A stretch of DNA of 44,540 nt from Thermoplasmata archaeon. GTDB lineage: Archaea > Thermoplasmatota > Thermoplasmata > Lutacidiplasmatales > UBA184. The stretch covers positions 1 through 44,540 of the forward strand of contig DASYZY010000123.1 in NCBI GenBank assembly GCA_035945735.1, written 5' to 3'. Of this stretch, positions 10,251-28,854 are shown piece after piece. The notes beneath the pieces were generated by a model. It was not told the origin of the DNA and did no database searches. It saw only the letters and a program-made list of their open reading frames with translations. Both the position numbers and the translations under genes were made by a program. Position 1 is the stretch's first letter, and each line of letters opens with the position of its first letter.

Positions 10251-10322
10251 CTGGTGACTCGGATCTGCCTTTGCTTGGATCGGAGCTCGAAGTGGCGAAT
10301 CTACACGCGGGTAGCGCCGATG

Positions 10323-10339
10323 GGAGTGCGGGCACCGGG
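10323..10339. repeat. attL core: 17-bp perfect direct repeat GGAGTGCGGGCACCGGG
   Basis: Identical to 28777-28793, which covers the 3'-terminal 13 nt of tRNA-Gly plus 4 nt. Extended similarity is 30/36 over 10311-10346 versus 28765-28800. Confidence 0.8.
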
Positions 10340-10408
10340 GTTCGAGGACTGAACCTCGGGAGCCTTGCCTACCTCGACCCCGGTTTGCTACTTCGCGAGG
10401 GGCCTTGA

Positions 10409-10609
10409 GTGGCAGCCGCGGCTCGCCTCGTTTCCGCGAGCTTCGGCGGCTCGGGTGATCTCAAGGAGGCGCTCCGCTCCGAGTGGCTCAGCCGCCACCG
10501 TATCCCCGAGGACTTCGAGCTGCTCTGGAACCTCTACTGGCGCGAGCTTGGCCCGCTCGCCGCTCTTCCCGCTTCGATCCACGATCTTGAGGAGGTGCTC
10601 GTCCGCTGA
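10409..10609 (+). CDS. hypothetical small protein
   Basis: 66-aa ORF with a GTG start and protein-like composition (DLKEALRSEWLSRHRIPEDFELLWNLYWREL). It is the first ORF inside attL. Confidence 0.4.
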   Translation: MAAAARLVSASFGGSGDLKEALRSEWLSRHRIPEDFELLWNLYWRELGPLAALPASIHDLEEVLVR

Positions 10610-10647
10610 TCGGCGTTCACCGACTCCGCGAGATCTCCCCGCCTCCA

Positions 10648-10995
10648 GTGATCACGCTCGAGTTCCGGTTCTGGCGAGAGCTCAATCTGCAGCGGAGGAA
10701 ACCCTTCGGCTGCCCCGACTGCCGGCACACCTTCGCGACGACAACCGTGATCCCGCGACACCTGCGGAACGAGCATCCTCGATGGATCCCGTTCTTGAAC
10801 GCTCGGGAGGTGATGAAGAACCCTCGACCAACGCCTCGAGCTGAACTCTGGAAGGATCCCGAGTTCAGAGCCCGGAACGCAGCCGCCGTCCGGGCGACCC
10901 TCGACAAGCGTTGGAAGGATCCCGAGTTCAGAGCCCGGAACGCAGCCGCGCTCGAAGCGTGGTACAACCGCGGCCGAACTGGCGGTGCGAGTTGA
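10648..10995 (+). CDS. C2H2 zinc-finger protein with duplicated WKDPEFRARNAAA motif
   Basis: CPDCRHTFATTTVIPRHLRNEH fits C-x2-C-x12-H-x4-H. The C-terminal half contains two copies of a 13-aa motif encoded by a 38-bp perfect DNA repeat. Confidence 0.65.
   Translation: MITLEFRFWRELNLQRRKPFGCPDCRHTFATTTVIPRHLRNEHPRWIPFLNAREVMKNPRPTPRAELWKDPEFRARNAAAVRATLDKRWKDPEFRARNAAALEAWYNRGRTGGAS
10849..10949 (+). repeat. 38-bp perfect direct repeat (10849-10886 and 10912-10949), period 63 bp, intragenic
   Basis: TGGAAGGATCCCGAGTTCAGAGCCCGGAACGCAGCCGC occurs twice in frame within the C2H2 gene. Confidence 0.9.
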
Positions 10996-12445: not shown

Positions 12446-12909
12446 GGATCCTGGACGCCACCGCCGGCAACCGTGGGGTCTGGTTCGACAAGAACTACCG
12501 GGATGCGACGTTCATCGACATCAGGGCGAAGGGGGAGACCTCCGAGCTGAAGCAGGACAACCTGGTCCTCGACTGTCGGAACACCCGATTCCCAGACGGG
12601 TCGTTCGACTTGGTGATCTTCGACCCCCCGCACATAGCAATCGGACCGAACGCCGAAATGGCGAAGCGGTACGGGTCGCTGCCCAATCCACCGGGACCCG
12701 AACCTATGAGGTCTAACGGCGGATATCCCTCTCTGGCCCGGTGCGACGTCGGCGAGTGCACATGGACGTACCGTGTGCCCGAGCGGCGGCCCCAGAGCCG
12801 AGCGAAGTCCGCGGTCTACATGCACCTCGCCAACCACCACGGTCTAAGAGGCCGGCTAAGGATGATCGCAGCCGATCGAATCTGCATGCGGCTCCAGGTG
12901 CCGGAGTGA
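12436..12909 (+). CDS. putative SAM-dependent (DNA) methyltransferase with DPPH motif and C-terminal C2H2-like finger
   Basis: ILDATAGNRGVW is motif-I-like. DLVIFDPPH is a motif-IV D/N-PP-Y/H type. The tail CDVGEC...MHLANHH is finger-like. No adjacent restriction endonuclease was recognised. Confidence 0.45.
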   Translation: MAVRILDATAGNRGVWFDKNYRDATFIDIRAKGETSELKQDNLVLDCRNTRFPDGSFDLVIFDPPHIAIGPNAEMAKRYGSLPNPPGPEPMRSNGGYPSLARCDVGECTWTYRVPERRPQSRAKSAVYMHLANHHGLRGRLRMIAADRICMRLQVPE

Positions 12910-13616
12910 ACGACCCCGTCGCCCTCTACCTGCGCGTTTCCACCGAGGACCAGGATCTCGGCGCCCAGGAGCGTGAGCTGCGGGAGTACGCCGGCCGCCG
13001 CGGCTGGACTGTCGAAGCGGTCTTTGCCGAGAAGGCGTCGGCGACGGGCAAGATCGAGCGCGAGGCGTGGGAGCAGCTGAGGAAGGAGGCATGCCTTCCG
13101 ACGACCCGCAGGTTTGAGCATGTCCTCGTCTGGGCACTCGACCGCTGGAGCCGGGACCGATCGTTCGTGAAGGCGATCGGCTCGATAGAGGAGCTCGAGC
13201 TCCTAGGCGTGGGTTTCCACAGTTTCAGGGAGCCGACGCTCGACTCCGGCGAGGATGGGAGCTCGAACCTAGCTCGGGACCTCCTCCGCGGGATCCTTCC
13301 AACGATCGCAGCGTTCGAGGCGCAGCGGCGCTCGGACCGCACGCGGGTCGCGATGCAGGAGATCAAGCAGGGTCGCCGGCGGACTCGCTCGGGGCGGCCC
13401 GTGGGCCGGCCGCGGCGCGTGACGCCTGAACTCGAACAGAAGGTGCGCGAGCTGCGCGCCCGGGGGCTGAAGTGGCGCGAGATCGCCGTTCGGCTCCGAA
13501 TCCCCTCCGGAACCGCTCGGAAGGTGCGGCTGCGGGAAACTGCTCGTGCGGAAAAAGGTCAGGGCGGGTTTGCCGCACCTTCGGCGGCATCCTTGGACCT
13601 GCCTACCGTCGGCTAA
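12906..13616 (+). CDS. small serine recombinase (resolvase/invertase family) with C-terminal HTH
   Basis: The GTG at 12906 overlaps the upstream stop. ALYLRVSTEDQDLGAQERELREYA contains the catalytic Ser motif (Y-x-R-V-S-T-x-x-Q). VWALDRWSRD follows, and the C-terminal HTH is VRELRARGLKWREIAVRLRIPSGTARKV. Confidence 0.9.
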   Translation: MNDPVALYLRVSTEDQDLGAQERELREYAGRRGWTVEAVFAEKASATGKIEREAWEQLRKEACLPTTRRFEHVLVWALDRWSRDRSFVKAIGSIEELELLGVGFHSFREPTLDSGEDGSSNLARDLLRGILPTIAAFEAQRRSDRTRVAMQEIKQGRRRTRSGRPVGRPRRVTPELEQKVRELRARGLKWREIAVRLRIPSGTARKVRLRETARAEKGQGGFAAPSAASLDLPTVG

Positions 13617-13631: not shown

Positions 13632-15227
13632 ATGCGCGCGCTCTGGATCCTGGTCGGGGTCCTCCTGACCGGGCCGATACTCACATCGCCCCAGGCCGCA
13701 GCAGCCCACCCGGCAGCCGGTGACTCGATTACGATCGGCTCGACCCTCTACACGCTCAACCTGAGCACATTCTGGGGTGCGGTCGGCCAGTTCGGGGCTA
13801 ACCCGTCGACGCCCGCGCTGCGCGCCGATACGAACGCCACCCCGCTCCAGGTCTTCCGCTTCGCCGACGGCATGGACTCGACGAACCTGAGCGCGAACGA
13901 GACCTGGACGCCGGGGGCGAGCAGCGCGACGGCCGGCACTATCGGGATCAACGTCCTCACCGACTGGCAGTTTTGCGAGGAGCTCCGCTCCCCGTGCACC
14001 TTTGTCTTCCAGCTGCCCGGCGAGACCGACTCGGCGGGCGACGTGCGCTCCGCGCTTCAGTTCTTGCAGATCCACGACATCGAGCCCGCGTACTACTCCA
14101 TCGGAAACGAGCCATCGCTCTGGAAGCACTGGGGTGAGGCCTGGTCGACGTGGGCCACATCCGACTCGTCGAAGCCGACGGGGCTGCAGTACGCCCAGGA
14201 GGTCCAGCAGCTGGTCCCTGTGATCCGCGCGATCGTCCCGGGTGCGAGGATCATCGGCCTCGAGGACGACCAGTGCTCGAATGACTCCTACGTGCAGCAG
14301 GTGGCGAAGATCAACGGACCTAACCTCTCGGCGATCGCGTGTCACTCATATTCGGCCAACTCCCAGGACGTCGCGGGCGCGGGGCTCCAGCAGTTCTACA
14401 ACGTCCTCACGTCGACAGGCGCGAACCCCGCCACGAACGTCCCGAAGGTCAGGGCTGGGATCAGGTTCGGCTGCGGCAGCTGCTCGCTGCCCGTCTGGAT
14501 CGACGAGGATAACGCGATCTCGGGCGCCGATCCCGCCCACTTCTCCCGCTACACGAGCTCCTACCCGGACTTCGTACTGACGGCTGGCGACCTGCTCGAC
14601 GCGATCGCGGTTGGCACTCCGCACGTCCTGTTCTTCCAGTATTGGGCTCCAAGCGGGTCGACCTACGGCATGGTGAATGGGTCGGGCCTCTACCTCCGGC
14701 CTACGTACTTTTGGTACTCCGCCTTCGCCGACCTGATTCCCTCGGGACCGGTGAGCGTGAATCAGACCTCGGTCGCGCCGTCGACGCAGCCGCTCGTGGC
14801 GCAGTTCCTCCAGAGCAACTCGACGAACTCAGTGGTGGTCGTGAACGGCAACGCGACGACGCCTGAGATCGTGACACTGCCGGTCTCGATGGAGGGAGCG
14901 TCTGGAGGGCGATCGGTCTACTGGGACAACAACACGCTCCAGCCATCGGTCATGAGCTGGACGGCTGCCCCACCTTCGCTCGTCTACATGCTCGGGCCCC
15001 AGTCGGTACTCCTGGTCGACAGCAGCCGCGCGCCTGCGATCGCTGGCACCGGCGGCTCGGGAGCGTCGCCCGCGCCCCCTTCGGGGACGGGCACTAACAG
15101 CTCGGGCGGGTTCCTCCTTCAGCCCGACGGCTCCTCAGCGATCCCTTGGACCTGGATCGGCGCGGGGGCCGGCCTGCTCGGCGTCGTGGCCCTGGCTGCC
15201 GTCTCCCGCCACCGGAGGCTGCGGTGA
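13632..15227 (+). CDS. secreted, C-terminally anchored glycoside-hydrolase-like protein (clan GH-A TIM barrel candidate)
   Basis: The signal peptide is MRALWILVGVLLTGPILTSPQAAAA. YYSIGNEPSLW carries the NEP acid/base motif of clan GH-A, and LPVWIDEDNA is a candidate nucleophile strand. There are many N-x-S/T sequons. The C-terminal TM WIGAGAGLLGVVALAAV is followed by SRHRRLR. Confidence 0.5.
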   Translation: MRALWILVGVLLTGPILTSPQAAAAHPAAGDSITIGSTLYTLNLSTFWGAVGQFGANPSTPALRADTNATPLQVFRFADGMDSTNLSANETWTPGASSATAGTIGINVLTDWQFCEELRSPCTFVFQLPGETDSAGDVRSALQFLQIHDIEPAYYSIGNEPSLWKHWGEAWSTWATSDSSKPTGLQYAQEVQQLVPVIRAIVPGARIIGLEDDQCSNDSYVQQVAKINGPNLSAIACHSYSANSQDVAGAGLQQFYNVLTSTGANPATNVPKVRAGIRFGCGSCSLPVWIDEDNAISGADPAHFSRYTSSYPDFVLTAGDLLDAIAVGTPHVLFFQYWAPSGSTYGMVNGSGLYLRPTYFWYSAFADLIPSGPVSVNQTSVAPSTQPLVAQFLQSNSTNSVVVVNGNATTPEIVTLPVSMEGASGGRSVYWDNNTLQPSVMSWTAAPPSLVYMLGPQSVLLVDSSRAPAIAGTGGSGASPAPPSGTGTNSSGGFLLQPDGSSAIPWTWIGAGAGLLGVVALAAVSRHRRLR

Positions 15228-15376
15228 CCGAGATACTGGAACTGTCCGGTCGCCAGCGCTGCCACGAGTGTCGGAAGGAGCTCCCGCTCGGTTACAGGGC
15301 GAAGAAGTGGCATCTCGCTGAGCACCGCCGGCACCGAAACCGAATTGGGGGGGTTCGGCCCTCTCCCGTTCGCTGA
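15224..15376 (+). CDS. small C2H2-like zinc-finger protein
   Basis: The GTG at 15224 overlaps the upstream stop (GTGA). CHECRKELPLGYRAKKWHLAEH fits C-x2-C-x13-H-x3-H. Confidence 0.4.
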   Translation: MTEILELSGRQRCHECRKELPLGYRAKKWHLAEHRRHRNRIGGVRPSPVR

Positions 15377-15424
15377 GGGCCGCGGCGCGGCCCTCGGTGC
15401 GACGCCCGGCCCTCGAGAGAGGGC

Positions 15425-16855
15425 ATGGACCATCGGGCGCCGGGAATCGGGGTGACAGCCCTCGTCCTTCTCGTTCTTACGCTGCCATCGACGGCTGCCT
15501 ACTCACCCCGGGGCGGTCTGGAACCTGACCCGTGGATCTCCGGCAACGTCACCTTCACCGGACACCAGGAGTCGTGGCCGGCGCTCCAGTACGCCCCGGC
15601 AACTGGCCTCAACGCCGAGGTCAACCCGCATACCGGCGACCCATACTTCGTCGACCCGACGGGGATCTCCTCGGCGGTCCTTCAGAACGACACCGTCGGG
15701 TTGACGGAGTGGAACCAGCCGTCGGCGTGGTTCTGGCAGCCGAATCTCGCGCCGGGTTCGGTGACGCGCCTCTTCTCGACGACGTGGCATGGACTCCCAG
15801 CGATCGAGGCGAGCCTGAACACGAGCTCGAAGAGCTCACAGAACGTTGGGATCGAGTACGACATCCCGTACTCCGCGCTCCCTTCGGCGAACCCGTCGAA
15901 GGACTATCTCTCGCTGGGGTTCCGGTTCGACGGGCCGCGCTGTCCCTATCAGAACGCGACTCCCGCGTGCACGGCGCAGCTTCTCGTCACGAACGGGACC
16001 TACGCGGGGTACTGGGCAGCGGCGTTCACCCCGCAATACCAGGCGACCGAGGTCGGGACGCAGTCGTACCCGCTGCCCGGCGGGTCTTCCTGGGTCTCGA
16101 CGTCGCTCGCGTCGATGGACTACCCGTACATCAGCGCGGGGTGGCCGGGAGTCAACTTCTGGAACTCGCTGAACGCCTCGAAGGGGATCCAGGTGGTCAT
16201 CCAGTTCTTCCTCCCCGAGTGGCCGCCGGCCGAGTCGTACACCTACAACGTCACGGTGACGGCGATGGAGCTCAGCCAGTCCCCCGTGGTCCTCGGCTCA
16301 TTGGACTGGGGGAAGACCGTCGTGAGCCCGAGCGTCTCGATGGGCTTCGTCAACCTCTCGGCCCTTTCCCCCAACATCGGCATAGCCGAGTTCGCCGGCC
16401 CTACCTACCGGTTGAGCGTGGCCCAGCCGATGGATCTCCTCTCGGGGGCCAGTGCGACCCCTGTCGCGCTTCCATCCGGGTCGGAGCGGGTGACCTACTT
16501 CGCGCCGTTCGCGCTGGCGTCGGCGCCCCCGCTGCAGTACGGGACCTTCCAACTCGGCGACATCCAGGCGGTCCCGTCGTACTTCTACTCCAGCGCGAGC
16601 CTTGGCTCGATGAACGTCCTGCCGAACTACACTCGCCCCGGGCAGGTCATCCTGGCAACCCCGCTGACGGCGCCGGTGCCCGGGAACTACTCGGCTACCG
16701 TCACGTACAACGCGACGGATTGGGCGGCGATCATCGCGACTCCCGGCGGGCTGCTCCTCAGCTCCGGGTTCCTCTCGTTCCTGGGGACATGGTGGCCGCT
16801 CCTCGCTCTCGCGGCCGGGACGACAGTCGTCGGCGTGGTGGCCCTCCGCCGCTGA
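15425..16855 (+). CDS. secreted N-glycosylation-rich protein with C-terminal membrane anchor (spike-like, paralog A)
   Basis: It has a signal peptide / N-terminal TM (GIGVTALVLLVLTLPSTAA). The large ectodomain has many sequons. The C-terminus is TPGGLLLSSGFLSFLGTWWPLLALAAGTTVVGVVALRR. Shared motifs with 16965..18482 include GN.TF..H..W..L.Y, LQND.V and WNQ. Confidence 0.7.
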   Translation: MDHRAPGIGVTALVLLVLTLPSTAAYSPRGGLEPDPWISGNVTFTGHQESWPALQYAPATGLNAEVNPHTGDPYFVDPTGISSAVLQNDTVGLTEWNQPSAWFWQPNLAPGSVTRLFSTTWHGLPAIEASLNTSSKSSQNVGIEYDIPYSALPSANPSKDYLSLGFRFDGPRCPYQNATPACTAQLLVTNGTYAGYWAAAFTPQYQATEVGTQSYPLPGGSSWVSTSLASMDYPYISAGWPGVNFWNSLNASKGIQVVIQFFLPEWPPAESYTYNVTVTAMELSQSPVVLGSLDWGKTVVSPSVSMGFVNLSALSPNIGIAEFAGPTYRLSVAQPMDLLSGASATPVALPSGSERVTYFAPFALASAPPLQYGTFQLGDIQAVPSYFYSSASLGSMNVLPNYTRPGQVILATPLTAPVPGNYSATVTYNATDWAAIIATPGGLLLSSGFLSFLGTWWPLLALAAGTTVVGVVALRR

Positions 16856-16964
16856 CGCGGACCGAGCGAAACCTATCTGTGGGGGGTACGGCATAGTCCC
16901 GTCCGCTGAGGGCCTGACGCCCGGCCCTCAGCAAGCCGCGCCAGGTCCTCCGCGCAGGACGCGG

Positions 16965-18482
16965 ATGAAGGCGGAATCGGGCGAGGCGCGAAGACTTCGG
17001 CGAGCTGGAGCGAGGGCAGTCTCCCTCGCGGTCGCGGTCCTGGTCGTTGGGATCGCCTTCGTCGCGTTCGGATCCCCTCCGGCGCGCGCCTACACGCCGC
17101 AGTCGTACAACGGCGCGGTCATCGAGCCGAATCCTGAGATGGAGGGCAACACCACCTTCTCGACGCATCTTGCGGGCTGGAACCCGCTCGAGTACTCCGC
17201 CTCGAGCGGCCAGGGCAACCTGAGCGCCGCCACGGATCCGCGGGTCCCAACCCCCTTCTCGATCAACCCCGGCGGAATCGTCGCTCCGGGCATTCTGCAG
17301 AACGACAAAGTCTCCGGGACCACCCCTTGGAACCAGACGAGCTACCTCGGCAACATGGGCGGGATGTCCGCCGGCGGAACCTCTACGGAGACGGCACCTA
17401 CGGTGAACGGCCAGACGGCCCTCCAGTGGGTCGTGAACACCTCGAACGGCGCGGGCCAGGGCCTCGTGAGCACGACCTCCGCGATCTCCTCGGCGAGCTG
17501 GCCCTCGAGCAACCCGACCTTCGACTACGTCACTGCGATCATGACTGTCTCGGGTGGCTCGTGCGCGACCTGCTCAGCCAGCCTTGAGCTCGGCAACGCC
17601 TCGGTGGCCTACCAGTCGGTCTACGTCTCCTCCACCGGTCAGCCGGTGAACGGAGCTGTTGCAGGAGCTACTGCCTGGAAGCTCGGGGTAGGTAGCTCGG
17701 GGATCGTCAGCTTCTCTCTCGCACAAGAGACGTACTCGGGCATCGGACTCAACTACACCGGCAAGGGCGCCACGGCGAGCCTAACACTGACGATCGCGAT
17801 TTCGCTCGCGAAGCAGGCGTCGACTTCGATTACGGTGCAACTCCGTGGTCTTGCCTTCGGCACCGCGCCGCTGACCCTCGGCAACAGCGTCTGGGGGACG
17901 AACCCGGGGACCTACGCCCGCGCCTCCTACACCGGGAACGCGAACCTGACGGCGCTCAACCCGTCGTTCGCCTACAGCTCGGTCTCGGGCGGCAGTTACA
18001 CGGTCGCGCTCGTCCAGCGCGCCTCGGACCTCCCCTCGGGGAACGTGAGCCTGACCGAGTCCGCGCTCTCGAACGGCTCCGAGCAGGTCTCCTACAATTT
18101 CGCCTTCGGCCTTCCGATCGCGCCTGGGCTCACCTACGGCGCGTTCAAGCTGGTCGACGTCCCGCGGCTCGCGGCCTGGCAGTACATCGCCGTGAACTTC
18201 GGCGGTTCGAGCTACCTCTCAACGTATCAGACGAAGACCAACATCGGCAACTACACGACGGTCATCGCTTCGGTCGCGCCGACCACCGGGCAGAGCTGGG
18301 TCGGAACGATCGTCTACACCGAAGCCCAATGGATCGGGATCAGCTCGACGCCCGGGCTGTTCACGACAGGCTGGTTCGCGTTCAACTTCTGGTGGATCGT
18401 CGGAGGGTTTGCAGGCCTGATGGGCATCGGCGGGACGGTCGCCTTTGCGCAGCGCCGAGGAGCTGCGTCCCGGGTCCGCTGA
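16965..18482 (+). CDS. secreted N-glycosylation-rich protein with C-terminal membrane anchor (spike-like, paralog B)
   Basis: The N-terminal TM is AVSLAVAVLVVGIAFVAFG. The ectodomain is Ser/Thr/Asn-rich. The C-terminus is TPGLFTTGWFAFNFWWIVGGFAGLMGIGGTVAFAQRR. N- and C-terminal regions are collinear with 15425..16855. Confidence 0.7.
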   Translation: MKAESGEARRLRRAGARAVSLAVAVLVVGIAFVAFGSPPARAYTPQSYNGAVIEPNPEMEGNTTFSTHLAGWNPLEYSASSGQGNLSAATDPRVPTPFSINPGGIVAPGILQNDKVSGTTPWNQTSYLGNMGGMSAGGTSTETAPTVNGQTALQWVVNTSNGAGQGLVSTTSAISSASWPSSNPTFDYVTAIMTVSGGSCATCSASLELGNASVAYQSVYVSSTGQPVNGAVAGATAWKLGVGSSGIVSFSLAQETYSGIGLNYTGKGATASLTLTIAISLAKQASTSITVQLRGLAFGTAPLTLGNSVWGTNPGTYARASYTGNANLTALNPSFAYSSVSGGSYTVALVQRASDLPSGNVSLTESALSNGSEQVSYNFAFGLPIAPGLTYGAFKLVDVPRLAAWQYIAVNFGGSSYLSTYQTKTNIGNYTTVIASVAPTTGQSWVGTIVYTEAQWIGISSTPGLFTTGWFAFNFWWIVGGFAGLMGIGGTVAFAQRRGAASRVR

Positions 18483-18504
18483 GGGGGACGAGGGGGGTAG
18501 AAAC

Positions 18505-18999
18505 ATGGCTCGCACGTTCCACTTCGCGCTCGCCGCGATCGTCCTCGGCCTGACCTCGATCGGCCTCGCCTTCGGTCTCGGCTTCTTCGCCCCGGGCTGG
18601 TTCGCCTCTCCGTCGCAGGCGACGGAGATCATCCTGGTGGTCGGGGTGATCGCCACCTTCATCCTGTTCCTCGCGGCAATCGCCGTCGAAGGGAAGGACG
18701 GCCGGGCCTCGCGCGCAGTCGGCCACCCGATCTTCGGTCTGCCGAGCCGGGGGCTGCGCCGCAACTTCCGAGGCGTAGACGGCTGGAGGGGACACCACGT
18801 CGGGTGGCTGGTGATCTCGCTGTTCTTCCTCGTCCTCGTCTCGGCAGGCGCCTACGCCTGGGCGGTCGTCTACGAGGGCGCGGACCTGGTCAGCGCGGGA
18901 GTGATCGCATTCCTGATCTTCCTGCTGACCGCGCTCGTCGTGGCGATCGTCTTCGCCGCGATGAAGACGAAGAAGTGGGTCGCGAGCCACCGCCGCTGA
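18505..18999 (+). CDS. small membrane protein (about 4 TM)
   Basis: The ATG at 18505 is preceded by a purine-rich SD-like GAGGGGGGT. Four hydrophobic helices are present. Confidence 0.65.
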   Translation: MARTFHFALAAIVLGLTSIGLAFGLGFFAPGWFASPSQATEIILVVGVIATFILFLAAIAVEGKDGRASRAVGHPIFGLPSRGLRRNFRGVDGWRGHHVGWLVISLFFLVLVSAGAYAWAVVYEGADLVSAGVIAFLIFLLTALVVAIVFAAMKTKKWVASHRR

Positions 19000-19024
19000 G
19001 CCCGCCGGTGCCGAGGCGAGGACC

Positions 19025-19366
19025 GTGCCCTGGACGCTGAGAGGAGACATCGTCTCCCAGATCACCAACCTCATCTGGGGGTTCTTCTCGTCGATCCTGA
19101 CGGGCATCGAGTCCTTCTTCGGCAACATCTTCTCGTCGATCTCGAACCTCTTCGCGACCATCTTCCAGGCCCCTGCCACCGCGATCAGCACCTCGTGGGC
19201 GTCGCTGACGGCGTGGGTCAACATGTGGGGACCGCTCGCCCCGATCATCACCGTCGGGATCGTGGTCCTCGTCGTCCTCATCACCGTCGGGGGAGCGTGG
19301 CTCGTACTGCGCGAGTCAACCGCCGAGGCGAACAAGGAGATCGACGAGGTCGAGGAAGGCGAGTAG
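19025..19366 (+). CDS. small membrane protein with amphipathic N-terminal region, one C-terminal TM and an acidic tail
   Basis: 113 aa. GPLAPIITVGIVVLVVLITVGGAWLVL is followed by RESTAEANKEIDEVEEGE. The TM region resembles that of the next gene. Confidence 0.6.
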   Translation: MPWTLRGDIVSQITNLIWGFFSSILTGIESFFGNIFSSISNLFATIFQAPATAISTSWASLTAWVNMWGPLAPIITVGIVVLVVLITVGGAWLVLRESTAEANKEIDEVEEGE

Positions 19367-19375
19367 GAGGCCCGC

Positions 19376-20008
19376 TTGTGGAGCAACTGGTCTCGCGCCG
19401 AGAAGATCGTCTTCGTGGTCGTGGTGAGCCTGGCAGCTTGGGAAGGAGCCGGCGCCGCCTACCTCTACGCCACGACCCCGGCGCAAGGCGGCGGCCCGGG
19501 GAACGCCTTCGGGCCAATCGGACCGCACCCGCAGGAGGTCCTCGGCTGCAACTGGCTGGAGCAACTCCTCGGGGAGTGCCCGGGCGGCAACGCGGGACTT
19601 CCGGGCGGAGGAGGTGGCTTCGCCTGCATCGAGAGCCCGTCGCAGTTTGCTTCCTGCGTCAGTCAGGACATCCTGAACTCGATCTCGGCGATCTGGACCA
19701 ATCTCCTGCCCTTCCTCGAGACGTATCTCGCCAACCTGGCGTCAGCAGTCCTCGCTGCGATAGCGGGGGCTATCTCGGCGGTCGAGAATGCAATCGCCGG
19801 CGGAGTCCAGTCCATCGTCGTCGATGTCCTGACGCCCTTCAACTGGCTGTTCAACCTGGCCAACCAGGCGGCCAGCTCCTTCGGCCCGCTTTCCCCGATC
19901 ATCGTGACTCTGATCGTGGTCATCGGGGTCGTGGGCCTCATCGCGTTGCTCGGGCTCGTGGTCCTGCTCCTCTGGGGCGCAGGGAAGACGGCGTACAACG
20001 CCTTCTGA
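19376..20008 (+). CDS. membrane protein (N-terminal TM, Cys-containing Gly-rich loop, C-terminal TM)
   Basis: The TTG start is preceded by GGAGG. The C-terminal GPLSPIIVTLIVVIGVVGLIALLGLVVLLL is similar to the 19025 product. Confidence 0.6.
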   Translation: MWSNWSRAEKIVFVVVVSLAAWEGAGAAYLYATTPAQGGGPGNAFGPIGPHPQEVLGCNWLEQLLGECPGGNAGLPGGGGGFACIESPSQFASCVSQDILNSISAIWTNLLPFLETYLANLASAVLAAIAGAISAVENAIAGGVQSIVVDVLTPFNWLFNLANQAASSFGPLSPIIVTLIVVIGVVGLIALLGLVVLLLWGAGKTAYNAF

Positions 20009-20026
20009 GGGGGTGCCGATAGTCCG

Positions 20027-20434
20027 ATGGAGTTCCGAACGGCCCGCCGGATCAGCCTCATCCTCGGGCTCCTGATCGGCGTCCTCATCCTTGCCGAGAC
20101 CCTCATCAACGCCGTCTCGCTCGCGCCCAGCTTCGGTGAGACAGTCCCCTCCTGGCTCGCCTGGGCCGGCAACATTCCGCTGATCGAGTCGCTGTATGTC
20201 GACTCGCTTGTGTCGATTGTCTTCATCGTCTGGATCGCGTTCCAGTTCGCTGAGCGCGACACTCTCGACCACCCGCCCCGGCGTATGCGCTCGAGCGGGC
20301 GCGGGAGCGCCGCTGGAGGCGCGATCCTCCTCTTCCTGGCGTTCGTCCTCGGCGGGGCCTTCCTCTACGCGGTCTTCGGGCTCAACGTCGGCGACATCGG
20401 CTCGAACTTCCTGCACTTCTTAGGAGGCCTCTGA
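20027..20434 (+). CDS. small membrane protein (3-4 TM)
   Basis: 135 aa with hydrophobic helices throughout, tightly packed against its neighbours. Confidence 0.6.
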   Translation: MEFRTARRISLILGLLIGVLILAETLINAVSLAPSFGETVPSWLAWAGNIPLIESLYVDSLVSIVFIVWIAFQFAERDTLDHPPRRMRSSGRGSAAGGAILLFLAFVLGGAFLYAVFGLNVGDIGSNFLHFLGGL

Positions 20435-20436
20435 TC

Positions 20437-20778
20437 ATGCGGCGCCCTCGGCGACGCCTGTACCGGGGAAGCGGGACTCGGTCCCGCGAACTCCGCGAGT
20501 TCGACCGACGGTACGGCCGCCGGGGCGCCGAGGTTTACGGCAGGACGATCAACAAAGTGTCGCGCGAACGAGCGGCCGAACGGCCTGGGGGTGAACTCCG
20601 AGAATACGTCCGACCTCACCGGGCGACGTCCGACCGCGGGCGCCGCTACCCGGTACGCGGCCACTACGAAGAGATCCACGCGCACCCGCACGGGAAGGGC
20701 GACCACGCAGGCCGCTGTACGCGAGCCTGTCGCCGCGGGACCATGAGTCATGGTCACCGACGGCGCCGCCGACGCTGA
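20437..20778 (+). CDS. highly basic small protein (possible nucleic-acid-binding protein, or N-terminal part of the next gene)
   Basis: The ATG lies 2 nt after the previous stop. The product is Arg/His-rich but has protein-like stretches (YGRTINKVSRERAAE). It ends MSHGHRRRRRR, immediately before an out-of-frame signal-peptide-like segment. Confidence 0.4.
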   Translation: MRRPRRRLYRGSGTRSRELREFDRRYGRRGAEVYGRTINKVSRERAAERPGGELREYVRPHRATSDRGRRYPVRGHYEEIHAHPHGKGDHAGRCTRACRRGTMSHGHRRRRRR

Positions 20779-20810
20779 AGTTCGCCCTCGTCCTCCTGCT
20801 GCTCGCGGCC

Positions 20811-22559
20811 TTGGTCGCCGCGACGGCAAGCGCCACCGCGTCAACCGTCTCCCCGCTCCCGCCCCCATCCTCCAGCGGCCCATGCGCAGCCGGCGGCCTG
20901 TTCGGCGAGGTCTCCCCGGTCGGCCACGCCCTCGTCGGGATCCAGTACGCCGACCCGCAGACGGGCGACTCCTGCATCCTCGAGCAGGGCGCGACCCTCC
21001 CCGGGGACGAATTGATCGTCACGCTGTTCACCCCCGACCCAGTCCCGAGCTCCAACGTCACGTTCGACGTCGAGGAGTTCCGCTGGGGCTCGGAGACGGT
21101 GAGCTCGCCCGGGCCAAACAACACGACGGTCAGCCGGTCCGTCCCGGTCCAGGTCGACGTCGTCTGGTCGAACGCGACGGTCCCGGCGAACCCTGGCGAG
21201 ATCCAGCGGTTCGGGCTCAGCGTGCCCCCGGTCTTCACGACGCCCAATTCGGCAGCGAACCTGAGCGTCAGTGTCCTCGGCCTCTCCCTTCAGTTCAGGA
21301 TCGCGACGCCGGGGACGGGGATCCCGATCCCCGAGACCGTAGGGGGCCTCATCGGCTGGCTGGCCGCCATGACCCCCGTCGGGATAGTCGTCTTCCTCTC
21401 GGGGTTCGCTCCCGGCGAATGGTTCCTCCGTCGGATGCGCTACGTCTCGACGGCAATGTGGGCCGCGGCGTTCGCGCTGCTCGTCACCGTGATCATCCTC
21501 GTGGGAGTGCTCGCGGACTTCGTCGGGTTCCTCTACTGGCTCGGCGACGTCGGCGTAGCCGGCCTCGCGCTTGTCCTCCTGCTCCCGATCTTCCTCTGGG
21601 GGTGCGTCTTCTGGATCTTCGTTCGGAAGAACCGCGTCCCGCTGCGGATCCTCCGCGGGCCGATCGCGAAGGCGACGACCCGCGGGGAGCCAGTGTCGGA
21701 GCTGCTCCCGGTCCGCGTTTACGGCGGGGGGACCACCGGCCAGGAGGAGGAGCTCGTAGAGGGGCTTGGGATCGGAGGCCCCGGCGCGGCCTGGTATCGC
21801 CTGCTCGGGGTACGGGTCAAGTGGAAGCCAACCGAGCTCACCGACCGCCCGACGCTCGTCCGCTACGAGTTTCCGCACGGGAAACTCCCGATCGAGGGCG
21901 AGTACGCCGGCTGGCCCGGCCGCGGCGGCGCGCGCCTCGAGGTGAAGACCGTGAGGCCCTCTACCGTCTGGTTCCCGTGGCGCAAGTCCGTACGGGCGCG
22001 TCTGGATCCACCCGACCCTAACGAGCCGAACGGCCACGGACCGGCACCCCAGGCTAAGCGCCTCGAGAAGACCCTCCAAGAGGACGACTGGGCCCACCGC
22101 GGGTTCTTCCTCGGCCTCCGACATGGCGAGGCCCGGGTCGCCGCCCTCGGCTCTCCCGACTTCGTCGGGCCGGACATGTACATCCGCGGGGTCTCGAGCG
22201 CCGCCGAGTTCGGCCGCGAGGCCCAGCGCTGCCGCACTGCCCTGGTCGTTCAGAGCGCGCGCCTCGACCACGAGAGTTGGCTGAAGGCCGAGGAGATCCA
22301 GGCGGTCCACGACCGGATGGAACAGTTCGGGGGAGCCCCCGAGGTCCTCGAGGGCGTCCGTGAGCTCTCGACCCGATCGCTCGACCCGATGTTCGACCCC
22401 GGCGAGCTGATGGACCGACTCGAGCGCCGCGGCGTTCGGCGCGTCGACTACCGACCCCCGGGGACCTCGAAGTACTCCTACTCCTCGGAGACGAAGGCCG
22501 AGGTCGACGCGGATGCGACCAACCCGACCCCGCCCGAGTCGCGAGGGAAGGGCAAGTGA
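20811..22559 (+). CDS. large membrane protein: glycosylated N-terminal ectodomain, at least 3 TM, ~320-aa cytoplasmic domain (5' end unresolved)
   Basis: Sequons are NVTF, NNTT, NATV and NLSV. TM helices include VGGLIGWLAAMTPVGIVVFLSGF, AAAFALLVTVIILVGVLADFVGFLYWL and GLALVLLLPIFLWGCVFWIFV. The frame stays open upstream to at least 20709 (stop not located) and encodes LKFALVLLLLAALVAATASA without a canonical start. Confidence 0.7.
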   Translation: MVAATASATASTVSPLPPPSSSGPCAAGGLFGEVSPVGHALVGIQYADPQTGDSCILEQGATLPGDELIVTLFTPDPVPSSNVTFDVEEFRWGSETVSSPGPNNTTVSRSVPVQVDVVWSNATVPANPGEIQRFGLSVPPVFTTPNSAANLSVSVLGLSLQFRIATPGTGIPIPETVGGLIGWLAAMTPVGIVVFLSGFAPGEWFLRRMRYVSTAMWAAAFALLVTVIILVGVLADFVGFLYWLGDVGVAGLALVLLLPIFLWGCVFWIFVRKNRVPLRILRGPIAKATTRGEPVSELLPVRVYGGGTTGQEEELVEGLGIGGPGAAWYRLLGVRVKWKPTELTDRPTLVRYEFPHGKLPIEGEYAGWPGRGGARLEVKTVRPSTVWFPWRKSVRARLDPPDPNEPNGHGPAPQAKRLEKTLQEDDWAHRGFFLGLRHGEARVAALGSPDFVGPDMYIRGVSSAAEFGREAQRCRTALVVQSARLDHESWLKAEEIQAVHDRMEQFGGAPEVLEGVRELSTRSLDPMFDPGELMDRLERRGVRRVDYRPPGTSKYSYSSETKAEVDADATNPTPPESRGKGK

Positions 22560-23071
22560 GCGACGGGGACATCCACCCCGAGATCGAACTCCCCCCGTGG
22601 GAGCGAGAGGACGTCTACAAGGTCCCGGTGGTCCGCGGGGGTCGTCCCGACCTCCCCGGCATCGAGCAGGAGCAGGAGGCGCTCCTCCGCCTGATCGGGA
22701 CCCTCCCGAAGGACCTCGCCTGGTGGCCGGGCCACGGGAACGCGCTCCAGGTCGCCTATGAGGTGCGCGCCCGGCTCCTCCCTCGGATCAACGTGATCAC
22801 CCTCGGCCGCTGGCAGGAAGACGCCTACATCTGGTTCTTCCTCCTCGGCCCGGGCCCGAAGGACTACCGCTGCGCCACGCTCTGCATCCCCCACCCCACC
22901 GACGCCGCGTGGCTCTCCGGGAAGATCCCGCGCGAGCTGCTCTACCGCGGGGAGCGGAACCGGAACCTCCTCTCGAAGCACGTCATGGAGGCGTCCGCCC
23001 GGGCGATGCGCGAGGAGCAGGCCCGCCACTGGGTCCTCGCCCCCGAGCTCTCCAGCGACCGGGACCGATGA
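22556..23071 (+). CDS. hypothetical protein
   Basis: The GTG at 22556 overlaps the upstream stop (GTGA). The 171-aa product has soluble-protein composition and no recognised motifs. Confidence 0.6.
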   Translation: MSDGDIHPEIELPPWEREDVYKVPVVRGGRPDLPGIEQEQEALLRLIGTLPKDLAWWPGHGNALQVAYEVRARLLPRINVITLGRWQEDAYIWFFLLGPGPKDYRCATLCIPHPTDAAWLSGKIPRELLYRGERNRNLLSKHVMEASARAMREEQARHWVLAPELSSDRDR

Positions 23072-23994
23072 GCCACAACCCGCTGTTCGACCCTTCTGGC
23101 CCCCGCTTCTCGCTCCTCTATCGTTCGAGGGGACCTGTCGACGAGGGCCCCACCCGGGCGGAGATCTGGAAGTTCTGGATCGGCCGATGGCGCGCGCGCC
23201 TGAAGGCCGGCCGCGACTTGGTGATCGTGATCGACGCGGACCGGACCGGGAGCCCCGACGGCGTCGACGCGGGGGCGACCCGGGCCGGCAAGTCGACGCT
23301 GGGCCTCGAGATCCTCCAGGAGCTCGACCCGACGTTCACCCCGGCGAAGGTCCGCAACCGCGTGGCGGGGAGCGGGCCGGACCTCGCGCGGTACGTAATC
23401 GGCTGCGAGCGGGGAAACGGCTTCCTCTATGACGAGGGGATGTGGGGCGCGCGCGGCCGCGACGCGATGTCGCCCGAGACCAAGATGGTCGGGGAGGTCC
23501 TCGGGACTCTCGCTTCGCGCGGCGCGATCGTGGTCTTCTGCTGCCACTCGATGCTGACCCTCGACCCGGAGGTGAAGGCCCTCGCGTCGTACCGACTCCT
23601 GGTCCGGCGGAGGGGCCTTGCCGAGGTGCATACTCCCACCGTGCAGCTCGACCTCGAGCGGCCCCGACTCCTCCCGTTCCGCCAGCATGAGATGTCGCCG
23701 ATCGAGTGGGCCCCTCTCCGCGGAAAGCTCTGGAACGCGTACACCGCCGCGAAGACCGAGATGCAGGACGAGCGGATCCGCCTCAAGCTGGAGGAGCAGC
23801 GCGTATACCAGGCTCGCCGCCTCGGCCAGCGGGTCGACAATCCTTCTTCTGAGGGCGCGACCGCCGGCGGACCCGTAGTAAGGGGCGCGCGCGCGCCCGC
23901 TTGGAAGTGCTCGAAGTGCGGCTCGGCGTGGGGGCGGCGCTCCGACCGCGATCGCCACGAGGCGCGCTGCTCGGCGACGACGGGGTTCGGCTGA
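23068..23994 (+). CDS. small P-loop NTPase with C-terminal C2HC zinc finger
   Basis: The ATG at 23068 overlaps the upstream stop (ATGA). Walker A is GATRAGKST and Walker B is GFLYDEG. The C-terminal finger is CSKCGSAWGRRSDRDRHEARC. Confidence 0.75.
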   Translation: MSHNPLFDPSGPRFSLLYRSRGPVDEGPTRAEIWKFWIGRWRARLKAGRDLVIVIDADRTGSPDGVDAGATRAGKSTLGLEILQELDPTFTPAKVRNRVAGSGPDLARYVIGCERGNGFLYDEGMWGARGRDAMSPETKMVGEVLGTLASRGAIVVFCCHSMLTLDPEVKALASYRLLVRRRGLAEVHTPTVQLDLERPRLLPFRQHEMSPIEWAPLRGKLWNAYTAAKTEMQDERIRLKLEEQRVYQARRLGQRVDNPSSEGATAGGPVVRGARAPAWKCSKCGSAWGRRSDRDRHEARCSATTGFG

Positions 23995-24309: not shown

Positions 24310-24647
24310 TCGAACTGCCTAAGGACGCTCCTCGCGAGGAGGAAGGCCGACGCCGAGAGGGCGAGCAACGCGAAGAGGACGATCTCGAGCCCGATGATCG
24401 CCACCGACTCCGCCGCCGGTAGGTTGGACAGGACCGTGCCCGAGGTGTAGCACGACGTGGTCCCGTTGAAGTCGCTGCAGGTCGTGTACGGCTCGAGCAG
24501 AGCAGCCCCTACCGCTACTTGAGCTCCGATGAAGACCAGGAGGAGCGCGAGGCTCCGGAGCGCGTAAGCGCGTAGTCGGTCGCGGTGGGCCCGGGGCATT
24601 CGGTCCCAACGAGAGAGCAGGCCGCGGGAAGGTTGGTTCGGGATCAT
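24306..24647 (-). CDS. small 2-TM membrane protein with Cys-containing extracellular loop
   Basis: The internal ATG at 24647 overlaps the stop of the upstream RHH gene (ATGA on the minus strand). TM1 is LALLLVFIGAQVAVGAALL and TM2 is VAIIGLEIVLFALLALSASAFLL. Confidence 0.6.
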   Translation of the reverse strand: MIPNQPSRGLLSRWDRMPRAHRDRLRAYALRSLALLLVFIGAQVAVGAALLEPYTTCSDFNGTTSCYTSGTVLSNLPAAESVAIIGLEIVLFALLALSASAFLLARSVLRQFD

Positions 24648-24859
24648 TCCCGTCGACGGACCGCTCCCGGCGGCGCCCCAAGCGGGTGCTCCTTTTTCCA
24701 GCGCTCGATCTTCTCCTTCAGAGCCTCTCGGACGAACTCCACGCGGTCGAACCACCGTGGATCCGCCCTCATGATCTCGAGCATCTCGTCGTGGATCCTC
24801 CGAGGGATCGTGACCCCGACCCGCTCGTAGTCGGTCGTCGAGCGCTTTTTCCCGGGCAC
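24644..24859 (-). CDS. ribbon-helix-helix (CopG-family) DNA-binding protein
   Basis: RVGVTIPRRIHDEMLEIMRADPRWFDRVEFVREALKEKI fits the CopG/RHH pattern. The GTG start lies about 27 nt from a TATA-like element, consistent with a leaderless transcript. Confidence 0.8.
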   Translation of the reverse strand: MPGKKRSTTDYERVGVTIPRRIHDEMLEIMRADPRWFDRVEFVREALKEKIERWKKEHPLGAPPGAVRRRE

Positions 24860-28799: not shown

Positions 28800-28854
28800 A
28801 CCCGAGTTATAGGCTTGGCAAGCCTATGTGATAACCAGACTACACTATGCCCGC
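28781..28854 (-). tRNA. tRNA-Gly: tRNA-Gly (anticodon GCC), 74 nt, no encoded CCA
   Basis: Manual cloverleaf of the reverse complement. Acceptor: GCGGGCA/UGCCCGC. D arm: GUGU...UCAC with G18G19. Anticodon stem: UAGGC/GCCUA with loop UUGCCAA. T arm: UCGGG-UUCAAAU-CCCGG. Discriminator: A. Confidence 0.92.

Follow-up and report, generated by a model that had tools for sequence, protein, structure and literature searches.

A conserved morphogenesis-type gene module in a tRNA-Gly-integrated element of a Thermoplasmata archaeon, probably a provirus of an undescribed capsid-less virus family

The described systems closest to the locus reported here are spindle-shaped and pleomorphic viruses of archaea. 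Halspiviridae-type viruses (BLv25, His1) encode an ATPase of about 300 aa with a small DNA-binding end module, which is a helix-turn-helix in His1, and in His1 two proteins with a signal and a C-terminal anchor (ORF26 and ORF27) stand beside several small TM proteins. AvPV1, the pleomorphic virus 1 of Archaeoglobus veneficus, is a 17.9-kb provirus in tRNA-Gly with an integrase at one end, and its genes encode, in order, two spike paralogues, proteins of 126 aa (basic), 550 aa (multi-TM) and 124 aa, and an ATPase. The fusellovirus SSV1 is temperate and integrates in a tRNA gene; upstream of its B251-type ATPase lie the genes for a large adsorption protein that is anchored, for small hydrophobic proteins and for a basic protein that binds DNA. 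Members of the Pleolipoviridae sensu stricto (HRPV-1, HRPV-3) combine a spike, small membrane proteins, a membrane protein and an NTPase, and have no capsid.

The block lies in a stretch of 44,540 nucleotides (contig DASYZY010000123.1, hereafter the window) from a Thermoplasmata MAG, which bears out the archaeal host proposed by the first-pass annotation. A mobile element of 18.4 kb (about 10,340-28,793), inserted in a tRNA-Gly gene, has this block as its conserved core and, as its ends, a repeat holding the tRNA-Gly 3' end, with a tyrosine integrase adjoining. The features that define the element and flank the block are as follows:

10288..10345, no strand: attL, left copy of a 58-nt imperfect direct repeat (repeat D2, 83% identity)
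10323-10339: attL core GGAGTGCGGGCACCGGG, exact 17 nt, holding the displaced copy of the tRNA-Gly 3' end
10648..10995, + strand: C2H2 zinc-finger protein, 115 aa (translation; third-position GC supports the frame)
12741..13616, + strand: serine recombinase, resolvase or invertase type (Pfam Resolvase, E 5.7e-23)
24644..24859, - strand: candidate regulator, 71 aa (ribbon-helix-helix assignment from sequence reading only)
27843..28799, + strand: tyrosine integrase (Pfam Phage_integrase, E 7e-16)
28742..28799, no strand: attR, right copy of the 58-nt repeat, core 28777-28793
28781..28854, - strand: tRNA-Gly(GCC), the integration target (ARAGORN; Rfam tRNA, 67 bits)

In the window, the 17-nt core is present in two copies only, one at each end of the element, and 0 shuffles reached two matches. 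The final 20 nt of the integrase gene overlap the tRNA-Gly 3' end, and the gene remains intact upon integration, in contrast to that of SSV1, which is split. Its product is 44% identical to the integrase of the related metagenomic contig L002. At the other end, the first conserved gene inside attL is 10648, in whose product the WKDPEFRARNAAA motif is duplicated over an exact 38-nt repeat; on the related contig L003, a homologue (64% identical over 94 aa, E 1e-26) lies directly 3' of the integrase, as would be the gene order over the junction of a circularised element. No circular or virome-derived copy of the element was found, which counts against a provirus, as does the absence of an identified replication protein. 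In total, the element encodes three C2H2-type fingers, which are common in archaeal viruses. The serine recombinase has counterparts of 55-69% identity in L001, L002 and L004, and the candidate regulator, which has no Pfam match, was found by tblastn in L002, L003 and L007 (E 2e-8 to 6e-7). Pfam scans identified no replication protein in the element.

Between the serine recombinase and the regulator lies the block itself:

13632..15227, + strand: candidate anchored surface glycoprotein, 531 aa, with signal peptide, C-terminal TM and 12 sequons
15224..15376, + strand: candidate ORF, 50 aa, with the C2H2 pattern CHEC-x12-H-x3-H
15425..16855, + strand: anchored surface glycoprotein, paralogue A, 476 aa, with leader, anchor and 11 sequons
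16965..18482, + strand: anchored surface glycoprotein, paralogue B, 505 aa, with leader, 10 sequons and nine homologues
18505..18999, + strand: 4-TM protein, 164 aa (TM prediction)
19025..19366, + strand: 113-aa protein conserved in the close clade, with a region of amphipathic repeats, a single TM and an acidic tail
19376..20008, + strand: membrane protein, 210 aa, same family as 19025
20027..20434, + strand: 3-4-TM protein, 135 aa, conserved in the close clade
20437..20778, + strand: very basic protein, 113 aa, pI 11.8, conserved in relatives
20772..22559, + strand: membrane protein, about 582-595 aa, with signal peptide, sequon-bearing ectodomain, TMs and cytoplasmic domain
22556..23071, + strand: soluble protein, 171 aa, translationally coupled to both neighbours
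23068..23994, + strand: AAA+-type ATPase, 308 aa, with a C-terminal C2HC zinc finger (profile searches)

All block ORFs proposed earlier exist at their positions, and the co-directional, tightly coupled layout was likewise confirmed, with intergenic gaps from 12741 through 24076 of 15, -4, 48, 109, 22, 25, 9, 18, 2, 32, -4, -4 and 81 nt. Third-position GC backs every frame of the block except 20437..20778. The composition first described, with three anchored ectodomain proteins, four small membrane proteins, one basic protein, one 582-aa multi-TM protein, a 171-aa protein and an NTPase, also holds. Ten block proteins scanned against Pfam and PHROGs gave no credible match, and no capsid, portal or terminase family was matched, in agreement with the earlier remark that no capsid is recognisable.

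The three ectodomain proteins had been described as having a signal peptide, a C-terminal TM and a basic tail. N-terminal hydrophobic leaders are present on 13632, 15425 and 16965, and an anchor with an R-rich tail scored in 13632 and 15425; that of 16965 fell below the hydropathy threshold, its C-terminus reading as a glycine-rich hydrophobic stretch before an R-rich end. N-X-S/T sequons number 12, 11 and 10 in these proteins, a density of about 2-2.3 per 100 aa; these counts were reached in 0, 0 and 61 of 1000 composition-preserving shuffles, respectively, and the window's cytoplasmic proteins have 0-2, so that the reported enrichment is confined to ectodomain proteins. Proteins 15425 and 16965, which had not been recognised as related, are paralogues (29% identity, E 1e-38), and 15425 has homologues in L001, L002 and L004. 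The predicted model of 16965, of low confidence (pLDDT 53), has an ectodomain of nearly all beta strands with a single 6-residue helix; Foldseek ranks MAM, CBM30/27/22 and a phage baseplate protein highest, neither 6QGI nor 6QGL being among the 50 best matches listed, and a beta-sandwich of lectin or CBM type is suggested. Protein 13632 belongs to a large-ectodomain family that both clades of related elements possess; its homologues occur in L001, L003 and L006, several of them with Fn3 domains. Moreover, 13632 carries GNEP and IDE motifs which recall clan-A glycosidases, a resemblance that is unproven; its N-terminal domain has no Pfam or PDB sequence match, and the "hydrolase-like" label given to it at first came solely from the NEP-type motif and is backed by no sequence search.

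The small membrane proteins 18505, 19025, 19376 and 20027 are predicted to have 1-4 TM segments each. Two relations among them amend the first reading: the C-terminal half of 18505 matches the C-terminal extension of longer 16965 homologues, and 19025 and 19376 form one family with a common GPL(A/S)PII-plus-TM end. Against PHROGs, 19025 gave just weak tape-measure matches (E 7e-4). The coding status of the 15224 ORF is uncertain, because no homologue was found in related loci. The basic protein 20437, on the other hand, is a real gene despite its third-position GC, since six related contigs (L001-L004, L006 and L007), when translated, show stretches of 48-54% identity to it at the equivalent place in the module. 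The C-terminal part of the protein holds a conserved motif, HxxGRCxxxCRxGxxxHxH, that may bind zinc and also occurs in homologues in L017, and the gene is duplicated in L006 and L017; being basic with such a motif, the product is a candidate DNA-condensing protein.

In the 20811 product, 3 TM segments (residues 176-273) separate the N-terminal part, which bears sequons, from a C-terminal part of 300 aa; the protein is about 50% identical to its homologues in L001 and L004 and 29% to those in L002 and L016. Contrary to the earlier gene call, no canonical start precedes the signal peptide: the first one, TTG 20811, falls within it, and the in-frame codons upstream are ACG 20772 and CTG 20775. 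The 171-aa protein has homologues in L001, L004 and L005 and matches no family in Pfam or PHROGs.

The ATPase 23068 is the gene that connects the block to known viruses. It had been accurately described as an NTPase with Walker A/B motifs and a terminal zinc finger (GATRAGKS, FLYDEG and C-x2-C-x12-H-x3-C), and all three motifs are kept in 18 homologues. Profile comparisons place it in the AAA+ family of SSV1 B251, His1 ORF16, BLv25 ORF1 and AvPV1 gp10. The family profile found 451 representatives, and 37 of 54 distant relatives matched phrog_5484, the PHROG family matched by SSV1 B251 (5e-101) and AvPV1 gp10 (6e-13). In hhalign, the broad profile reached 96.6% with AvPV1 gp10 and 95.2% (E 2.7e-8) with SSV1 B251, while a narrow six-sequence profile matched ORF1 of the Halorubrum spindle-shaped virus BLv25 (hmmsearch E 2.9e-8; hhalign 95.8%, E 7e-9) and His1 ORF16 (42.7%, E 2.5e-4) and gave 3% with AvPV1-type ATPases; the nearest known ATPase among those tested directly is from a spindle-shaped virus. 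Assignment to the VP8 family of haloarchaeal pleolipoviruses (phrog_1979) was rejected (hhalign 9%), as was assignment to the VirB4, HerA, FtsK or VirD4 ATPases, the protein being a 300-aa B251-type AAA+.

The same gene order was found on nine further metagenomic contigs (L001-L004, L006, L007, L016, L017 and L021), and on most of the longer ones (L001-L004 and L021) an integrase, resolvase or ParB lies alongside; the module is thus conserved and mobile, and what is conserved across contigs is the module, not a replication gene. ParB is a plasmid-type function, an observation that counts against a provirus. L003 also has a DUF87 ATPase (HerA/VirB4-like; weak match) outside the module. All close relatives carry a 66-101-aa two-helix hydrophobic protein, similar to the spindle capsid protein in size and topology, which the window copy lacks together with a roughly 840-960-aa protein of relatives. 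Being short of two module genes of relatives, and with a further gene that no longer has its start codon, the window copy may be defective, and both features weigh against a provirus.

Compared with Halspiviridae-type viruses, the locus shares the ATPase, here ending in a zinc finger, and the His1-like grouping of anchored and small TM proteins. However, the ATPase is the sole common protein: a His1 VP21 plus BLv25 ORF2 profile found SSV1 VP1 (E 9e-6) and nothing significant here, no protein-primed polymerase is present, and the host is of another phylum and not a halophile. AvPV1 resembles it in integration site, gene order and ATPase, but no similarity links its gp08, gp09 or gp07 to the 582-aa, 171-aa and basic proteins here. 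SSV1 is alike in its ATPase, its temperate tRNA-gene integration and the genes upstream of the ATPase, but nothing here is similar to VP1, VP3, VP2, C792, A153 or B277. Pleolipoviridae sensu stricto share the general gene content, whereas their NTPase is of another family and homology to VP4 and VP3 is absent here. The lack of any structural protein homologous to VP4, VP3, spindle capsid proteins, SSV1 C792 or His1 VP27 speaks against a provirus. When the NTPase, 16965 and the 582-aa protein served as tblastn queries, GenBank phage records gave no match; neither IMG/VR nor GenBank phages contained a relative, a further point against a provirus.

A chromosomal S-layer or transport operon, which would have argued against a virus, does not describe the block, as it sits in an integrated mobile element with att repeat, integrase and tRNA. 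Its mobility, the absence of a capsid-type protein and the homology of its NTPase to the morphogenetic ATPase of capsid-less viruses make the candidate lineage of capsid-less archaeal virus suggested at the outset the best reading. We consider the block to be a morphogenesis-type module of a temperate element and, since its sole link to known biology is the ATPase of capsid-less spindle-shaped and pleomorphic viruses, probably that of a provirus of an undescribed, capsid-less and membrane-associated archaeal virus family. It is rather unlikely, though worth serious weight, that the element is an integrative plasmid or satellite-like element which borrows a virus-type ATPase, makes no particles of its own and spreads vertically, by helper virus or by membrane vesicles, its surface proteins acting on the host envelope. 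The same ATPase is a core gene of the plasmids pSSVx and pL6 and of SRCE satellites, so that it is by itself no proof of virion formation; the ParB and serine recombinase of relatives, the missing two-helix protein and the lack of a detectable known virion protein would also fit. Known satellites, however, are 2.7-9 kb and have no large envelope-type proteins, whereas more than 10 kb of this 18.4-kb element is given to a conserved set of secreted, anchored glycoproteins, small membrane proteins and one basic protein in an AvPV1/His1 gene order, and it is this module that persists across contigs.

The specific pleolipovirus analogy drawn by the first-pass annotation does not hold. A very divergent true member of that lineage (Pleolipoviridae or 'Thalassapleoviridae'), with 15425 and 16965 as unrecognisable VP4-like fusogens and 20027 as VP3-like, seems improbable, even though AvPV1 matches in gene order, tRNA-Gly target, 18-kb size and duplicated spike, its gp10 is related to the ATPase here, and VP4-encoding proviruses are reported from Methanomassiliicoccales, likewise Thermoplasmatota (PMC10919331). 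Homologues of the VP4 fusogen, the hallmark of pleolipoviruses, and of VP3 were not detected although controls worked: hhalign gave <=2% probability for the spike and 13632 families against AvPV1-type or HRPV-1 VP4, while the control, AvPV1-type VP4 against HRPV-1 VP4, gave 76% (E 2e-5). VP4-type spikes begin with a four-helix bundle, which the beta-rich, low-confidence 16965 model does not show, and the narrow ATPase profile is nearer to the spindle-virus ATPase than to the AvPV1 type, with the VP8 family unmatched. Vesicle- or secretion-type DNA transfer, also raised initially, gained no support, and an ICE-like or Ced/Ted-like conjugative element, with a channel made of the membrane proteins and DNA transfer driven by the NTPase, is the least probable of these readings and hardly to be expected. 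The NTPase does adjoin several small and polytopic membrane proteins, and L003 has its DUF87 protein, but that gene is missing from the window and the other relatives, the conserved NTPase is of the B251 type, and no conjugation family was matched in Pfam.

If the element is a provirus, the integrase would excise it, the serine recombinase would resolve multimers, and the circular genome could then be condensed by the basic, putatively zinc-binding protein. The small hydrophobic proteins and the 582-aa membrane protein might, aided by the ATPase, come together at the cell membrane to form the particle, either spindle-shaped or a pleomorphic vesicle. The three glycosylated, C-terminally anchored ectodomain proteins would decorate this particle and serve in its attachment. 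Before entry, the glycosylated host surface may be the target of the lectin-like beta-sandwich and of the putative glycosidase.

Such elements are rare: the NTPase falls into 19 clusters among 5.8 billion proteins, and across 185,579 species genomes the module turned up at a single locus, which belongs to a Thermoplasmata MAG.

The 11-gene block lies within a provirus-like element that is integrated at a tRNA-Gly gene in a Thermoplasmata archaeon MAG (contig of 44,540 bp, GC ~70%). The features that delimit and accompany this element are as follows:

10288-10345: second copy of a 58-nt imperfect repeat that covers the 3' ends of tRNA and integrase
10648-10995, + strand: C2H2 zinc-finger protein, 115 aa, the first conserved gene inside attL
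12741..13616: serine recombinase, encoded by the element
24644..24859: conserved small candidate regulator, ribbon-helix-helix-like by eye only
27843..28799, + strand: tyrosine integrase (Pfam E 7e-16), its 3' end within tRNA-Gly(GCC)
28781-28854: tRNA-Gly(GCC), on which ARAGORN and Rfam agree

A site-specific recombinase adjoins its tRNA target, and direct repeats are present on both flanks. The exact 17-nt att core was found only at 10323-10339 and 28777-28793, two matches being reached in no shuffle, and from these positions the element measures about 18.4 kb. Outside it, MoxR, DUF58, a Na/H exchanger and a PKD/Kelch protein are encoded on one side and GT4, GH57 and a GHMP kinase on the other, all of which look like ordinary host genes. 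The product of 10648..10995 is 64% identical to that of the gene directly after the integrase on L003 (L-numbers denote metagenomic contigs carrying a related module), which is the order expected in a circularised element. An ASCH protein is also encoded in the element, while no replication protein was recognised there, and no att-like tRNA fragment was found in related loci. Two candidates were discarded: ORF 10365..10844, whose match on L003 is only a shadow, in another frame, of the real gene 10648..10995, and 9210..10250, which had been considered as a second integrase. Gene 10648..10995 itself contains an exact 38-nt direct repeat (10849-10886 and 10912-10949) that duplicates the motif WKDPEFRARNAAA.

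All ORFs listed in the first-pass annotation were present in the block at the coordinates given there, and their frames are backed throughout by third-position GC except that of 20437..20778, which encodes the basic protein. The latter is nevertheless a gene, because translation of six related contigs (L001-L004, L006, L007) gives, at this place in the module, sequence 48-54% identical to its product. The co-directional, tightly spaced arrangement was confirmed, with gaps from 12741 to 24076 of 15, -4, 48, 109, 22, 25, 9, 18, 2, 32, -4, -4 and 81 nt. Three large products had been described as anchored ectodomain proteins; a leader is present in 13632, 15425 and 16965 (ORFs named by start coordinate), and a scored C-terminal TM followed by arginines in 13632 and 15425, but the C-terminal hydrophobic stretch of 16965, which is glycine-rich and was read from the sequence, falls under the hydropathy threshold. 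The ectodomains are indeed rich in sequons (12, 11 and 10, respectively, vs 0-2 in cytoplasmic proteins of the window), and these counts were matched in 0/1000, 0/1000 and 61/1000 shuffles. Likewise, the 308-aa NTPase has Walker A and Walker B motifs and a terminal C2HC finger, all kept in 18 homologues. Some relationships within the block needed correction: 15425 and 16965 are paralogues (E 1e-38), 19025 and 19376 cluster in one family, and 18505 is the counterpart of a C-terminal extension in longer 16965 homologues. Ten block proteins were compared with Pfam and PHROGs, and none had a credible match.

Homologues of the NTPase formed only 19 clusters among 5.8 billion proteins, all of them metagenomic. 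Nine further contigs with the same gene order were recovered, eight from the contexts of the NTPase clusters and one via a spike homologue. The shared order runs from large anchored surface protein(s) through small membrane proteins, a basic protein, a 546-593-aa membrane protein and one to three small proteins to the ATPase, and on most of the longer contigs (L001-L004, L021) the module is accompanied by integrase, serine recombinase or ParB genes. By clustering, the contigs fall into a close clade (L001, L002, L004, L016, L021) and a distant clade (L003, L006, L007, L017). Members of the former encode, like the window, proteins of the spike family together with the small membrane proteins and the 582-aa protein. 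The latter resemble the window in their ATPase, in the basic protein and in having large surface proteins from the 13632 family; where the 582-aa protein would lie, they encode one of 546-551 aa (hhalign between the two, E 7e-4 across 233 columns). In 185,579 species genomes a single locus was found, likewise in a Thermoplasmata MAG. No relative was detected in IMG/VR with either the NTPase or its alignment, nor in the JGI metagenome scan, and tblastn of the NTPase, spike B (16965) and the 582-aa protein against 50,697 GenBank phage records gave no match. The distribution is therefore patchy, a rare module whose neighbour genes vary between contigs. An ordinary chromosomal S-layer or transport operon is refuted because the module is conserved, rare and mobile across contigs.

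The ATPase is the only gene of the element with known relatives, and it points to the wider set of ATPase-bearing spindle-shaped and pleomorphic viruses, as far as can be read from sequence profiles. A profile of 18 homologues retrieved 451 representatives at E ≤ 1e-3 from 1.84 billion proteins, and 37 of the 54 more distant relatives match phrog_5484, the family that in control scans matched SSV1 B251 (5e-101) and AvPV1 gp10 (6e-13; AvPV1 is the Archaeoglobus pleomorphic virus). In profile-profile comparison, the broad ATPase profile, a widened alignment including the window protein, scored 96.6% with AvPV1 gp10 (E 6.6e-10) and 95.2% with SSV1 B251 (E 2.7e-8), while the narrow profile of six sequences matched ORF1 of BLv25, a Halorubrum spindle-shaped virus, at 95.8% and His1 ORF16 more weakly at 42.7%, with 3% for AvPV1-type ATPases and 1% for B251. 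Narrow profiles against single HRPV-1, HRPV-3 and AvPV1 proteins were negative, and profile links came only from the broadened ATPase profile and from BLv25. The element thus encodes an AAA+ ATPase of the B251/His1 ORF16 kind found in spindle-shaped viruses (Fuselloviridae, Halspiviridae and allies); it is also known from pleomorphic viruses of the AvPV1 type and from plasmids or satellites (pSSVx, pL6, SRCE elements). The structural model (pLDDT 73) has a strand/P-loop/helix core, and its C2H2-like finger superposes on CTCF fingers. Foldseek of this model against the PDB returned the zinc finger and no P-loop match, and the NTPase profile against PDB sequences likewise matched only a C2H2 finger. 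In BFVD, the best viral matches were three unnamed proteins of 236-290 aa (probability 0.91-0.97), and a literature search for their accessions gave no result.

The first-pass annotation had proposed a new lineage of capsid-less archaeal virus resembling pleolipoviruses, or else a vesicle- or secretion-type transfer element. The former holds in kind, as an archaeal capsid-less virus-like element of a new lineage, but the specific pleolipovirus affiliation does not. In gene order, the window element does resemble AvPV1. This provirus of 17.9 kb sits in tRNA-Gly and encodes a pair of paralogous spikes, followed by a basic protein (126 aa), a multi-TM protein (550 aa), a 124-aa product and finally the ATPase. 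On the other hand, the AvPV1 proteins at the corresponding positions show no likeness to the 582-aa, 171-aa and basic proteins. Membrane protein 20027 (135 aa, 3-4 TM) suits a VP3-like protein in size and topology; it shows no profile similarity, but the control of AvPV1-type against HRPV-1 VP3 also reached only 0.5%, so that this comparison has no power. The VP4 fusogen (V-shaped fold, PDB 6QGI/6QGL) was not detected: when the spike and 13632 families, whose profiles are shallow, were compared by hhalign with AvPV1-type and HRPV-1 VP4, the probability was ≤2%, while AvPV1-type against HRPV-1 VP4 as positive control gave 76% (E 2e-5). In the AlphaFold model of 16965, nearly the whole ectodomain consists of beta strands; the model is of low confidence (pLDDT 53), because only the 10 sequences from which it was built exist; a second spike search with the alignment added none. 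Its best Foldseek matches were MAM, CBM30/27/22 and a phage baseplate protein, and 6QGI/6QGL were absent among the 50 best matches listed for this pLDDT 53 model. VP4-type spikes start with a four-helix bundle that includes one helix of >40 residues. As for the NTPase, HRPV-1 VP8 and HRPV-3 ORF5 match phrog_1979, which is distinct from phrog_5484. Neither the window NTPase nor its relatives match phrog_1979 (hhalign against HRPV-1 VP8, 9%). The secretion- or vesicle-type system received no support. Conjugative or Ced-type transfer is very unlikely, since the module has no VirB4, HerA or FtsK-type ATPase and its conserved ATPase is of the B251 AAA+ type; a DUF87 ATPase is additionally carried by L003, and by this contig only, outside the module.

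A spindle-shaped particle is the other candidate. All relatives encode 66-101-aa proteins with a leader and two hydrophobic helices, which share the topology of spindle capsid proteins, the likeness being in topology only. A capsid profile of His1 VP21 and BLv25 ORF2 found SSV1 VP1 (E 9e-6) and none of the family's proteins (best E 0.28), and no major capsid protein of the hydrophobic alpha-helical hairpin type was recognised. Comparison by hhalign of every module family with AvPV1-type, HRPV-1, SSV1, BLv25 and His1 proteins yielded nothing beyond the ATPase. A likeness of 19025 to the spindle capsid loop ('STSW...W...LP' plus a TM helix) was dropped, as it scored 8% against His1 VP21 alone and was gone against the two-sequence capsid profile. 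Because of the ATPase affinities and the two-helix proteins of the relatives, we lean towards a spindle-like putative particle, with a little less than even confidence; a pleomorphic one is rather unlikely, and some other shape slightly more so.

The surface proteins might supply an entry function. A GNEP or GDEP motif and a downstream (I/V)(D/G)E motif are common to 13632 and two homologues, from which 13632 is hypothesised to be a clan-A glycosidase, with a TIM barrel, the NEP acid/base and a nucleophile Glu. 13632 had no Pfam match, and the PDB sequence search with its family returned Fn3 domains in relatives and nothing else. Very large proteins with glycoside-hydrolase domains have been reported in nanohaloarchaeal spindle-shaped viruses. 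On a speculative reading, which we hold to be improbable, the element could represent a new virus family of non-halophilic, high-GC Thermoplasmata, with a putative virion of proteins unrelated to known virion proteins and a new entry machinery, in which anchored glycoproteins of a lectin-like type and a glycosidase that destroys the receptor would act on the glycocalyx of hosts largely lacking a wall. Only an ancient AAA+ morphogenesis ATPase would be shared with spindle-shaped and pleomorphic viruses and, if this is true, the virion architecture might therefore be one unseen so far. Few viruses of Thermoplasmatota are known, and a 2026 survey (PMC13573593) of >7,000 genomes from Thermoplasmatota and Nanobdellota reported no more than 30 provirus regions. 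The element family was missed by the resources tested, namely IMG/VR and GenBank phages (both for the proteins queried) and PHROGs and Pfam (no credible match for the ten block proteins). With its well-conserved ATPase and fixed gene order as markers, metagenomes from soil and sediment can be screened for archaeal viruses without a capsid. Moreover, the AAA+ ATPase family by which spindle-shaped viruses and pleomorphic ones of the AvPV1 type are linked gains a Thermoplasmata branch, and the block is a source of candidate new envelope and attachment proteins for experiments.

The window copy is without two genes of its closest relatives, a two-helix protein and a protein of ~840-960 aa. Close relatives encode one or two two-helix proteins of 66-77 aa after the 135-aa membrane protein and before the basic one, and three of them also an extra 836-957-aa protein upstream of the 582-aa homologue:

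L001, 4496-4720: two-helix gene(s)
L002, 3498-3971: two-helix gene(s)
L016, 4371-4577: two-helix gene(s)
L001, 5036-7738: extra large protein
L004, 5210-7720: extra large protein
L016, 4964-7837: extra large protein

At the site of the two-helix gene the window has 2 nt only (20434-20437), and the distant clade has 90-101-aa versions of this protein. The extra large protein had no family match and no counterpart in the window or L002. The signal peptide of the 582-aa protein, KFALVLLLLAALVAATASA, is coded upstream of the first canonical start (TTG 20811), with no ATG, GTG or TTG ahead of it; the frame opens with ACG 20772 and CTG 20775, overlapping the stop of the basic-protein gene, and the homologues have Met at the equivalent starting point. 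This gene has either lost its start, and the provirus would then be decaying, or begins at a non-canonical codon.

Several minor observations were also made. At the C-terminus of the basic protein lies a conserved motif of His and Cys residues, HxxGRCxxxCRxGxxxHxH, and the gene for this protein is tandemly duplicated in the distant clade (L006 5309-5908; L017 5914-6438). A 96-nt tRNA-Pro called by ARAGORN inside the 171-aa gene (22647-22742, - strand) is probably a false positive because Rfam does not support it. Outside the block, two small ORFs (25137-25466, + strand; 24306-24590, - strand) each encode a leader and two hydrophobic helices, and their products resemble neither the two-helix proteins of the relatives nor the capsid proteins of spindle-shaped viruses. 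The ORF at 12298-12740 (+ strand) has a DPPH motif reminiscent of DNA methyltransferases and no Pfam match; the L002 module contains a Methyltransf_11 gene. Outside the att core, host-side 10288-10322 compared with 28742-28776 resembles the 3' end of the integrase gene (83% identity over the whole repeat), which may be a remnant of an earlier integration by a related element. GC across 4000-10300 is below that of the outer flanks. As well, a large host-side ORF at 5675-9064 (+ strand) encodes Kelch repeats and four PKD domains with one sequon only, and third-position GC suggests that its true start is near 6361, downstream of the annotated ORF start.
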